Source: an uncultured archaeon
GTDB lineage: Archaea; Aenigmatarchaeota; Aenigmatarchaeia; CG10238-14; SCSR01
Assembly (NCBI GenBank): GCA_964581305.1
Contig: CAZONC010000004.1
Coordinates: 1,848-37,409 of the forward strand
Direction of reading: 5' to 3'
Length of the DNA: 35,562 bases
Within the stretch, counting starts at the first letter, position 1. Each line of letters starts with the position of its first letter. The notes under the pieces are model-generated. The model saw only the letters and a list, made by a program, of their open reading frames with translations. It was not told where the DNA came from and did no database searches. Shown here one piece after another: positions 476 to 3,709 of the stretch. The translations under genes and the position numbers were made by a program.

Positions 476-512
476 TACATCATAGGTTTGTGGCCAAAGA
501 GGTCTGGAAAAG
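476..512 (+). other. 5' arm of pre-23S processing stem with BHB motif
   Basis: Pairs with 3673-3709; central helix GCCA (493-496)/TGGC (3686-3689) with 3-nt bulges AAG (497-499) and AAA (3690-3692). Confidence 0.9.
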
Positions 513-2534
513 GCTAAACCACTTGGTGGATGGCTTGGCTCCAGCACCGAAGAAGGACGTGGCAAGCTGCGATAAGCCTGGGTTAGCCGCATGCAGGCTT
601 CGACCCCAGGATCTCCGAATGGGAATCCTTGCCCGTTAAGGGCAATTCCGAAAGGAAGGGGAACGCCGGGAAGTGAAACATCTTAGTACCGGCAGGAAAA
701 GAAATCAATTGAGATGCCGTTAGTAAGGGCGACTGAAAGCGGCACAGACCAAACCGAACGGCTGTCGAAAGACAGTACGGATGTGGAGTTGTAGGACCTG
801 GGTACTTCTTCGCTTTCCGACCCGAAGTGAGCTGGAAAGCTCCGCCAAAGAGAGTGATAGCCTCGTAGGGGAAGGAAAGAAAGAAGATTCCCAGGTATCC
901 TGAGTACTGCTCCTTGGATATGGAGTAGGAAGCTGCGGGGCATTAACCTGCAAGTCTAAATATGTCTGGAGTCCGATAGCGCACTAGTATCGTGAGAGAA
1001 AGCTGAAAAGTACCGCGAAAGCGGGGTGAAAAGAGCCTGAAACCAAGTGGTGAAAGTCAGATATGGCCCGAAAGGTTTTGTTCCGAAGGAAAGCCTCGCA
1101 AGGGGCGAGTACGAGGAACAAATTACAGGGTCATATCGTCCGTTTTGAAAAACGGGGCAGGGAGTGTATCTCAGTGGCGAGGATAAGTGGTTCAAACCAC
1201 GGATCCGTAGCGAAAGCGATAAGCACGTAGCCCGAAAAGGGTGTGGTGCACTGTACGAAAGTGCAGGTAGTCACTGGGATACGACCAGAAGCCAGTCGAG
1301 CTAACCCCGGACAGGGTGAAGCCTCTCGAAAGAGGGGTGGAGGCCCGCTACCGGTGTTGAGATGCCAATCACTCGGGTGATCCGGGGTTAGGGGTGAAAA
1401 GCCTATCGAGACTGGGGATAGCTGGTTCCTCCCGAAATGCATCTCAGTGCAGCCTGGCCTGAGGAAAATGACCTGGTAGAGTTACTGATTGGACGGTCAA
1501 GGTGCGAAAGCATCAGCCGTCCTGTCAAACTCCGAACAGGTCATTTCCGTAGAAGGCCGGAGTGAGGGTGCCGGGGTAAGCTCGGCATCCGAGAGGGGAA
1601 CAACCCAGACCAAGGTTAAGGTCCCTAAATGCTAGCTAAACGAGGAAGGGAGTCCAAATCCTTAGACAGCAGGGCTGTAGGCTTAGAAGCAGCCATCAGA
1701 TAATAAGTGCGTAACAGCTTACCTGCCGAGGATTTGGGCCCCGAAAATGGAAGGGACTAAGCTAGCTACCGAGACCTTGGAGCTCGAAAGAGCTGGTAGG
1801 GAGGCGTTCTGCGTGGGCAGAAGCCTCTGCGTGAGCAGGGGTGGACCGCGCAGAAATGAAGATCCTGCCATGAGTAGCAGCATAGCTAGGTGAGAATCCT
1901 AGCCACCTGAAGGATAAGGGTTTGCCAGCAATGTTCGTCAGCTGGCGGTTAGTCGGTCCTAAGGGCTTGCTTAACCGACAAGCCCGAAAAGGGAAATGGT
2001 TTAATATTACCATACCATGAGGGTACGTGCGGCAACGCAAGCCAAGTTTCCGACGCTTTTGGATAGGCCGACGCAAGTTAACCGTGTAAGCCTGCGGAGT
2101 CTCGTAATGAGGAGAAGCAGGTGAAAACGGGAATAGCTCTGCGTATGCAGAGTTCGGCTGATTCCAAGAGCCAGTGAAAAGGAAACTTGGAAGGATCCCT
2201 CATGACCGTACCGAGAACCGGAACAGGTATCCTCGCTGAGAAGGCGAAGGTGTGTTAGGACAACCCAGCCCAGGGAAATCGGCAAATTGGCTGCGTATCT
2301 TCGGTAGAAGCAGTGCCTGTGATCCTGAAACAGGAGTTCTGCTTAGCAGAGCGACTGTGGAGGGATCGCAGGTCGCAGTGACAAGGAGGGGGCGACTGTT
2401 TAACAAAAACGCTGGAGACTGCTAGTCGGAAACGATGTGTACAGTCTCTGATGCCTGCCCAGCACCGGTGTGTGAAGCCCTGGTTCAACAGGGTGAAGCC
2501 CCGGTTAGCGGCGGCGGTAACCCTGACCGTCGTA

Positions 2535-2579
2535 ACCAAGGCGGTCATATGATTTCATGATGCGCCGCCTGGGCGGCAT
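2535..2579 (+). other. 23S rRNA BHB intron 1 (45 nt), after E. coli-equivalent position 1927
   Basis: Insertion between H69 and GTAGCG; helix GTCG (2529-2532)/CGGC (2574-2577), bulges TAA and ATA, inner stem AGGCGG/CCGCCT. Confidence 0.85.
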
Positions 2580-2946
2580 AAGTAGCGTAATCCCTTGCCG
2601 TTTAAATGACGGCCCGTTGAACGGCTTAACGACCTCCTCGCTGTCCCGGGCTGGGACCTAGCGAAATTGCCTTTCCGGTGAATAGGCCGGAGACCTCCAG
2701 TGGGAAACGTAGACCCCGTAGAGCTTTACTGCAGTCTGATGCTGTGGTGTGGTTACAATTACATAGAGTAGCTAGGACTCGTTGAGGCTTGGCCTCCGGG
2801 CCAAAGCTGAGAGGAAAGTGTAACACTAGCTTTTTGTAACTGCACCGCTAACCCGAAGAGGGGACACCATCAGATGGGCAGTTCGGCTGGGGCGGTACGC
2901 CCTTGAAAAGATATCAAGGGCGCCCTAAGCTCAGCTCATCCGGGTC

Positions 2947-3034
2947 ATGATAGAAGTTGGCAATGATTTGATCGCTCCGGAATGACTACATGATTTCAGA
3001 GGTAGCTGATGAGCACCAACTTCTATCACCCGAA
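2947..3034 (+). other. 23S rRNA BHB intron 2 (88 nt), after E. coli-equivalent position about 2306 (H84 loop)
   Basis: Perfect 13-bp stem 2948-2960/3016-3028, helix CGGG/CCCG, bulges TCA and AAA; splicing restores GGGTCAGAAATCC. Confidence 0.92.
2961..3014 (+). ncRNA. Putative intron-encoded box C/D guide sRNA
   Basis: C ATGATTT 2963-2969, 12-nt spacer, D' ATGA 2982-2985, C' ATGATTT 2990-2996, 12-nt spacer, D ATGA 3009-3012; each spacer has 9-bp complementarity to this 23S. Confidence 0.7.
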
Positions 3035-3206
3035 AGAAATCCGGAGTAGAGTGTAAGCGCAAAAGCTGGGCTGACTGGATCTCGCAAAGCGAGAGATCCA
3101 GGTGCGAAAGCAGGGGCTAGCGATACATCGGCTGGTCTTAATGGCCGCCGGTGGTATCAGAAAAGCTACCTCGGGGATAATGGGCCCGTGGCCGGTGAAA
3201 GTCCAC

Positions 3207-3234
3207 AGCTGGGGTCTACTTTCCTAGCGGATAG
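3207..3234 (+). other. 23S rRNA BHB intron 3 (28 nt), after E. coli-equivalent position about 2477 (H89 loop)
   Basis: Helix GTCC (3201-3204)/GGAT (3229-3232), bulges ACA and AGA, inner stem GCTGGG/CCTAGC; splicing restores GTCCACATTGAC. Confidence 0.9.
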
Positions 3235-3333
3235 ATTGACCCGGCGCGTTGGTGCGTCGTTGTTGGCTCCCCCCCTCCTGGCCGTGCAGCAGCGGCCAAG
3301 GGTACAGGTGCCCACTGGTTAAAGGGGGACGTT

Positions 3334-3367
<34 letters not shown>

Positions 3368-3672
3368 GCTATCTACTGGAGGTGCTGGCTGTCTGACCGG
3401 AAGGAAGCATTAGTACGAAAGGAACGTGCTTCCGTGGCCTCTGGTGTACCGGTTGTGCTTTTGCACCGCCGGGTAGCTACGCCATAGCAGATAACCCCTG
3501 AAGGCATCTAAGGGGGAAACTGCCCGGAAAAATAGACAGCCACTCGCTCGACTGCTGAGAAATCAGCGGAAGAGCGACGAAGGCCCTCGTAGACGACGAG
3601 GTTGATGGGGCAGGAGTGTACGCCTCGAGCTTTCGAGCGAGAGGTTCAGCTCACTGCTCCCAAAAGCCTGAG

Positions 3673-3709
3673 CTTTTCCAGACCTTGGCAAACACAAACC
3701 TGTGATGTA
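3673..3709 (+). other. 3' arm of pre-23S processing stem with BHB motif
   Basis: CTTTTCCAGACCT-TGGC-AAA-CACAAACCTGTGATGTA is complementary to 476-512. Confidence 0.9.

Follow-up and report, generated by a model that had tools for sequence, protein, structure and literature searches.

A bulge-helix-bulge intron in an archaeal 23S rRNA gene carries a conserved box C/D sRNA with predicted targets in its own host rRNA

The window, by which we mean the whole stretch of DNA that was analysed (35,562 nucleotides, G000:C4:1848-37409), belongs to a 430-kb genome (G000) that is assembled in 21 contigs, 90.6% complete and AT-rich (33% G+C). It contains a 23S rRNA gene that is interrupted by an intron of 88 nt. 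Upstream of the window, the contig begins with ~686 nt from the 3' part of a 16S rRNA, which an Rfam search did not pick up, and a tRNA-Ala(UGC) gene is located at C4:1610-1682 between the 16S 3' end and the 23S rRNA gene, followed by a run of N and then the window start. ARAGORN with intron search lists 34 tRNA genes for the genome, many of them with predicted introns. Homologous loci of relatives, most of which are labelled Candidatus Aenigmatarchaeota (DPANN group), were collected by a pattern scan. E. coli numbers were obtained with MAFFT against E. coli rrlH, in which G2890 of the window corresponds to G2251 and U3167 to U2438; in the same alignment the intron follows E. coli 2306/2307 and precedes 2308, and it lies at the tip of the domain V hairpin 2299-2318. 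The host gene and the elements that bound the intron are as follows.

502 to 3683, + strand: 23S rRNA gene that contains the intron (2683 bits with Rfam RF02540, model positions 1-2987)
2941 to 2944, + strand: 5' strand of the central helix of the bulge-helix-bulge (BHB) motif, exon CGGG, pairs with 3029-3032 and covaries
2945 to 2947, + strand: BHB 5' bulge UCA, predicted cut after C2946, UCA in 20 of 27 intron-bearing loci
2947 to 3034, + strand: 88-nt intron, delimited by the excess over Rfam and over the intron-less relatives L022 and L031 and by the BHB geometry
2948 to 2960, + strand: 5' strand of the intron stem, pairs with 3016-3028, 13 bp in the MFE fold (z = -3.55)
3016 to 3028, + strand: 3' strand of the intron stem, pairs with 2948-2960 in the MFE fold
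3029 to 3032, + strand: 3' strand of the BHB central helix, intron CCCG, pairs with 2941-2944
3033 to 3035, + strand: BHB 3' bulge AAA, predicted cut after A3034, AAA in 18 of 27 loci

In the Rfam archaeal LSU alignment, 92 nt stand right after UCCGGGUCA at the position of a 4-nt consensus loop, which makes an insertion of 88 nt. The first-pass annotation had proposed a BHB intron of this length with exactly these boundaries, and both the excess over Rfam and the BHB geometry bear this out, as a 4-bp helix (CGGG/CCCG) lies between two 3-nt bulges, UCA and AAA, on opposite strands. Since the outer helix has just 2 bp, the motif is of the relaxed type. BHB motifs are cleaved after the second bulge nucleotide, and removal of 2947-3034 gives a 7-nt loop, UCAGAAA, which matches the intron-less genomes G057, G073, and G053 as well as the Rfam consensus length. 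An alternative BHB register, GGGU/ACCC, was dropped because it gives a 9-nt mature loop, whereas CGGG/CCCG fits the conserved 7-nt loop. Of the 30 loci compared, 28 have an insertion at this point of the 23S rRNA gene, and L022 and L031 have none. All four pairs of the central helix are kept in at least 22 of 27 loci (CGGG/CCCG in 14, GAGG/CCUC in five, and AGGG/CCCU, GAGG/CUUC, and GUGG/CCGC in one each), and three failures are mis-parsed long introns. Across the 27 loci the first two nucleotides of the 3' bulge are variable and the third is constant, and the terminal stem of relatives is altered in sequence with its complementarity kept. Three metatranscriptomes from other habitats, compared at 80% likeness, gave contigs of other organisms, possibly intron-less, in which the exons are covered and the depth over 2964-3011 is zero. 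Two contigs in X19 join 2946 to 3035; they come from other organisms, perhaps without the intron, and are hence no evidence of splicing. The DNA run X2 contains the homologous intron of a relative.

The interior of the intron consists of the following elements.

2963 to 2969, + strand: box C, AUGAUUU, UGA invariant in alignment A1, position 6 covaries with position 1 of box D
2970 to 2981, + strand: D' guide, 12 nt, with conserved pairing to the P loop
2982 to 2985, + strand: box D', AUGA, position 1 covaries with position 6 of box C'
2986 to 2989, + strand: D'-C' loop, sequence CUAC
2990 to 2996, + strand: box C', AUGAUUU, position 6 covaries with position 1 of box D'
2997 to 3008, + strand: D guide, 12 nt, pairs with 3164-3172
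3009 to 3012, + strand: box D, AUGA, position 1 covaries with position 6 of box C; canonical CUGA in the homologues L008 and L085

These are the boxes, and this is the C-12-D'-4-C'-12-D layout, that had been read from the sequence alone before. Compared with the box C/D motif RUGAUGA/CUGA, the UGA cores are invariant and the boxes read AUGAUUU and AUGA. Among the homologous loci, 22 of 30 parse as C(7)-12-D'(4)-loop-C'(7)-12-D(4) within a complementary stem, and L026 and L030 parse additionally; box D' is degenerate in L017, L021, and L028. The two spacers of 12 nt agree with the length of about 12 nt that is typical of C/D sRNAs, and relatives mostly have 12 nt as well; the length is 13 nt in L008, L023, and L018, and one clade combines 14-15 nt with an expanded loop. 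An internal D'/C' pair of boxes is present, and its loop measures 4-8 nt in 18 of the 22 parsed loci. Among the homologues, the boxes turn out to be conserved and the box pairs to covary, so that the U-A pair, noted earlier as a replacement of the usual G-C pair between the boxes, is genuine and a trait of the lineage. For the pair counts, a sequence-only covariance model was built from 17 compact copies, which gave 57 aligned matches, and box C position 6 was counted against box D position 1 according to the well-known pair geometry of k-turns. This pair is U-A in 27, A-U in 13, G-C in three, G-U in one, and unpaired in four of 48 cells, and the corresponding D'1/C'6 pair is A-U in 30, U-A in 12, C-G in eight, G-C in one, and unpaired in two of 53 cells; such counts overstate the number of events, as related sequences are not independent, and several events are needed because three pair types per position occur in separate clades. 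Taking the box pairs and five flanking stem pairs together, 85.2% of the cells of the 57 homologues are paired compared to 53.3% in shuffles. The covariation score is 0.418 compared to 0.108 in shuffles, none of 500 shuffles is as high, and slid registers reach at most 0.11. Furthermore, a strict pattern of box, 12 nt, box, 3-9 nt, box, 12 nt, and box occurs three times on both strands of the 430-kb genome, compared to a mean of 0.2 in 20 mononucleotide shuffles. The third match is located at G000:C11:1268. A permissive Rfam scan of the intron gave four matches, all of them to CD-box families and all under the gathering score. Pyrococcus sR44 (RF01129) and sR38 (RF01121) align with the intron end to end in box layout and length with E values of 0.0079 and 0.026; at 18.2 bits against a gathering score of 45 and 17.0 bits against 50, respectively, the intron is a member of neither family. 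These sequence comparisons confirm that the interior of the intron has the make-up of a complete dual-guide archaeal box C/D sRNA.

In both guides the predicted target nucleotide faces the fifth nucleotide upstream of box D or D', and the two target regions lie on either side of the intron, the P loop 57 nt upstream and the D target 130 nt downstream.

2887 to 2896, + strand: target of the D' guide, the P loop (E. coli 2248-2257), predicted methylated nucleotide G2890 (E. coli G2251)
3164 to 3172, + strand: target of the D guide (E. coli 2435-2443), nine Watson-Crick pairs, predicted methylated nucleotide U3167 (E. coli U2438)

An unbiased scan of the rRNA of each relative gave the P loop as the sole recurring site of the D' guide, the best or tied best in 12 of 22 genomes. 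The guide pairs with the P loop in one register in all 38 homologue/genome pairs, with position 5 on G2890, and the contiguous run through position 5 comprises at least nine pairs in 28 of the 38 and at least six in all of them. In G000 there are ten pairs, three of which are G-U, and this is why the first-pass annotation missed the P loop. Throughout the 38 pairs, positions 4 and 5 of the guide are C-G, and at positions 6, 7, 9, and 10 the target G is always faced by a pyrimidine (C or U). At position 11 there are 29 A-U, eight G-C, and one A-C, at position 3 there are 30 A-U, four G-U, and four C-U, position 8 shows mixed covariation (G-C 27, A-U 4, A-C 7), and position 12 is random. With the D' guides of L006, L016, and L023, 3-5 of 300 shuffled versions score as high as the real guide. 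For this genome alone, 99 of 300 do so, which is chance level, and the same holds for the D guide with 36 of 300; the significance of the pairing to the targets comes from the relatives and not from this genome alone. In L026, L030, and other genomes of genus g6, the half with the D guide is conserved, the D' guide differs, and the covariance model R1 matches at model positions 28-62 only, which suggests that the D' guide was retargeted in these genomes. The P loop of L003, L005, and L007 (and of G104 and G099) is split after GCUGGG by another insertion of ~84 nt, which is itself C/D-like in L003 and L007 and has a CUGA box D in L003.

The D guide is perfectly complementary to 3164-3172 with its nucleotides 2999-3007, and the fifth nucleotide upstream of box D faces U3167. 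This target had already been named from the window alone, and we keep it, since all 20 relatives in which the target is readable show the same register. At least nine contiguous pairs are present in 15 of these 20, and L025 has a compensatory change from C-G to U-A in guide and target. Mismatches are found at position 8 of the guide in L018, L019, L024, and L027 and at position 4 in L013. We know of no methylation at the equivalent of U2438. The D target is also split in some relatives, by an insertion of ~27-33 nt after AAAAGCUAC (equivalent to 3169/3170 of the window) in L005, L012, L031, and the X2 contig. As the P loop and the D target are both interrupted in relatives, both targets of the sRNA are intron sites in some of them.

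Beyond the intron, 73 of the 118 genomes of the order contain a match to the model R1. In a phylum-wide sample of 151 genomes, matches at E ≤1e-5 are found in 51; 13 of these, with weaker matches, are among the 99 sampled genomes from outside the order. A further 33 matches comprise five introns at the same 23S site, one match in a long intron there, and 27 free-standing copies in 26 genomes. The free-standing copies are located in AT-rich intergenic DNA and are each closed by a terminal stem of their own, and a TTTAAATA-like box stands ~30 nt upstream of many of them. At least 13 of the 26 genomes with a free-standing copy have an uninterrupted hairpin at the intron site. Moreover, L158 (G081:C18:8150-8560) contains the same sRNA with both guides in another stem-bounded 23S insertion ~20 nt upstream of the P loop, and the hairpin at the site of the G000 intron has no insertion in G081. 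Judged by this homology, the same sRNA family is found sometimes as a gene of its own and sometimes inside an intron, at one of two sites in the rRNA.

The genome encodes the proteins with which such an intron would be expected to work. The genes for fibrillarin and Nop5 are adjacent, L7Ae is encoded, and the splicing endonuclease EndA (PF01974, 89.3 bits) and the RNA ligase RtcB (558.7 bits) are both present, as a BHB intron calls for. A second L7Ae-family match at G000:C2:30586-30846 (56.9 bits) contains one in-frame TAG. No SpoU-family (RlmB-type) methylase was found in the 90.6% complete genome. We consider it probable that the intron becomes part of a C/D RNP, that this RNP methylates the host rRNA at G2251 and U2438, and that the intron is removed via the BHB pathway. 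From the features described above we infer 2'-O-methylation, splicing, and protein binding in the following way. L7Ae would bind the terminal k-turn (C/D) and the internal k-loop (C'/D'), both with U-A for G-C, and Nop5 and fibrillarin would assemble on the intron RNA. The D' guide would then pair with the P loop at 2887-2896 and bring G2890 into the methylation position, and the D guide would do the same for U3167 by pairing with 3164-3172. Since both targets are part of the host pre-rRNA, the RNP could modify its host in cis, while the transcript is still being made, or work in trans once the intron has been cut out, and guide and substrate would be made in a ratio of 1:1. The splicing endonuclease is predicted to cut the 3-nt bulges after C2946 and A3034, upon which RtcB would join the exons to the loop UCAGAAA and probably circularise the intron.

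The explanation that competes best with a methylation guide, although we regard it as unlikely, is that the RNP or the bare intron acts as a folding chaperone only, which holds the P loop and the 2435-2443 strand during the folding of domain V and leaves both unmethylated. Both targets flank the intron in one domain, a mismatch next to or within the duplex is tolerated in some lineages, and dual-guide sRNAs that bridge nearby rRNA segments have been proposed as chaperones (part of PMC4644070). Such a role alone does not account for the fixed register, in which position 5 is always on G2251, a nucleotide methylated in all domains of life, nor for the 12-nt spacers and both k-turn pairs being kept, and it would leave the encoded fibrillarin aside. 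The two roles are not exclusive. Very unlikely in our opinion is a structured BHB intron whose L7Ae-binding k-turns serve splicing or RNA stability and whose spacers are conserved for a cause other than pairing. Other archaeal processing RNAs contain k-turns, and the complementarity within this genome on its own is at chance level, which would both fit; but the guides vary only in such a way that pairing at two rRNA sites is kept, while position 12 and the loop vary freely, and the RNA persists as a free-standing gene, outside any intron that would need splicing.

The same comparison of guides among relatives bears on where the D' guide is aimed. The first-pass annotation had assigned it to G1560 by pairing with 1557-1565, with 3040-3047 beside the splice site as an alternative. 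Both can be formed in this genome, the former with nine pairs including one G-U and the latter with seven Watson-Crick pairs and one G-U, and the guide has a site at 1556-1567 that scores as high as the P loop, as well as an 8-bp Watson-Crick site in the partial 16S rRNA. Neither of the two assignments persists in relatives: the pairs with 1557-1565 are lost, most relatives have an A at guide position 3, where the opposing C has stayed the same at both sites, and the helix of the hairpin around 3040 varies (CCGGG, CGAGG, CAGGG, CGUGG) without compensation in the guide. The score is also reached by 99 of 300 shuffled guides, and we consider either target highly improbable. A search for a 16S target of the D' guide, which had been suggested at the same time, did find eight Watson-Crick pairs at 790-801 of the partial 16S rRNA, but these are not conserved. 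The site was rejected as a conserved target, because relatives keep the 16S sequence and their guides mismatch, and because the 16S match of f5 is located in another, variable hairpin; it could still be an extra target in this genome alone. That the intron is a selfish element with box-like motifs by chance, to which a genome of 33% G+C with its common UGA motifs might give rise, is hardly credible in view of the three pattern matches where 0.2 are expected, the conservation in 73 of 118 genomes of the order, and the covariation that none of 500 shuffles attains.

Returning to a methylation guide within the intron, its origin may be viewed in two ways. Since 26 relatives have the sRNA as a free-standing gene, uptake of such a gene into the rRNA gene is no less likely than domestication of an intron. 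Going further, it is possible, and put forward here tentatively, that box C/D guides are mobile cargo that creates rRNA introns in this DPANN lineage. This would also take in the other C/D-like sRNAs in introns of 16S and 23S rRNA genes, and the free-standing copy as a promoter-driven gene. Circular sRNAs with BHB-like ends would insert into rRNA near their own pairing sites, by reverse splicing or an equivalent at the DNA level. If this were true, the rRNA operon would bear its own set of modification guides, which would be an archaeal parallel to the intronic snoRNAs of eukaryotes and a route by which archaeal rRNA introns originate. In any case, free-standing and intronic copies with two intron sites within one order bear on the origin of rRNA introns and on the association of snoRNAs with introns.

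Archaeal rRNA BHB introns are reportedly insertions at conserved rRNA sites that are variably present among relatives, as in Thermoproteales and Desulfurococcales. The intron described here shares the BHB bounds and the patchy presence with them and differs in that it carries a guide RNA; to our knowledge, the described rRNA introns are empty or contain ORFs of homing endonucleases. A literature search among the main texts of mostly open-access articles, so that an earlier mention elsewhere is possible, found no published C/D sRNA in an rRNA intron. Intron-borne C/D guides are named for tRNA introns only in the portions of PMC7994747 and PMC3491384 that deal with them. The closest likeness is the pre-tRNA-Trp intron of Euryarchaeota (Haloferax volcanii; Pyrococcus sR50), in which a dual-guide C/D sRNA makes up the bulk of a BHB intron and is aimed at the RNA that contains it (PMC7994747, in part), and in Nanoarchaeum equitans the tRNA-Met intron likewise is a BHB intron with a C/D guide to its host RNA (PMC3491384, in part). 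Unlike in these tRNA introns, the host is a 23S rRNA, the targets are 57 and 130 nt off in a host of 3 kb, the boxes read AUGAUUU/AUGA, and homologues are free-standing and at a second rRNA site. As far as we know, C/D guides in BHB introns have so far been a matter of tRNAs, and here an rRNA intron would guide the modification of its own host, which would tie guide synthesis to substrate synthesis in a genome of 430 kb. Eukaryotic intronic snoRNAs are similar in that the guide is freed from an intron of a translation-related host gene (PMC7994747, in part). They differ by residing in spliceosomal introns of mRNA or lncRNA genes and by being processed by exonucleases, in contrast to a BHB intron inside the substrate rRNA.

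As far as the relevant parts of PMC7600485 and PMC11121408 go, Gm2251 is a universally conserved modification, introduced by RlmB in bacteria, by MRM1 in mitochondria, and by the snR67/U31 snoRNPs in eukaryotes. The D' guide would thus share its target nucleotide in the P loop with the protein enzymes RlmB and MRM1 and with the C/D guides yeast snR67 and human U31 (Gm2619/Gm4196, equal to E. coli Gm2251; PMC7600485, PMC11121408, both in part), a likeness of target for which no sequence homology is claimed. The second guide of snR67 is directed to Um2724 (PMC11121408, in part), unlike the equivalent of U2438 here, and the gene context differs, too. The intron would hence provide an archaeal guide for the universal Gm2251 of the P loop in an organism in which no RlmB-type enzyme was detected. 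In addition, sRNA finders that require RUGAUGA/CUGA would miss this family, and the U-A/A-U variant of the k-turn is a useful correction for them.

Further insertions were noticed in the rRNA genes of this genome and of its relatives. Upstream of the window, around G000:C4:548-640, an insertion within the AAGUCG/AACAAGGUAGCC region of the 16S rRNA contains another C-12-D'-4-C'-12-D sRNA at C4:574-636. The D' guide of this sRNA forms nine Watson-Crick pairs with GUCAAGCCA, where position 5 faces the first A, presumably A1408 in E. coli numbering, and its D guide forms eight Watson-Crick pairs with UCACCUCC at the 16S 3' end. Homologues are found in the 16S loci of eight relatives. A different 16S intron, located after GGAUUAGAUACCCCGGUA and with CUGA/AUGA motifs, is present in the genomes of L003, L004, L007, L010, and L011, and in L010 and L011 it includes a stretch complementary to the neighbouring GGAUUAGAUAC exon. 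Within the 23S rRNA gene of the window, 2535-2579 is an insertion of 45 nt that is missing in five compared relatives and has similar counterparts in L007, L011, and L012; it carries an AUGA-UUUC-AUGAUG motif on a GGCGG/CCGCC stem and is possibly a k-loop mini-intron. At about 3203-3232, 30 nt stand in place of 2 nt in the Rfam consensus at a hairpin tip after GGGGAUAA (region of the E. coli 2470s), and this excess could be an expansion or another small insertion. Among relatives, the 23S rRNA of G055 has an 84-nt insertion with C/D layout (L031:323-406), with a D' guide that by eye shows complementarity to CUGACCGUCGUA of the 23S rRNA at 11 of its 12 positions. Long AT-rich insertions of ~0.8 kb each are present in the 23S rRNA genes of L015 (G037), there within the P loop, and L006 (G007), and both look like ORF-bearing introns.
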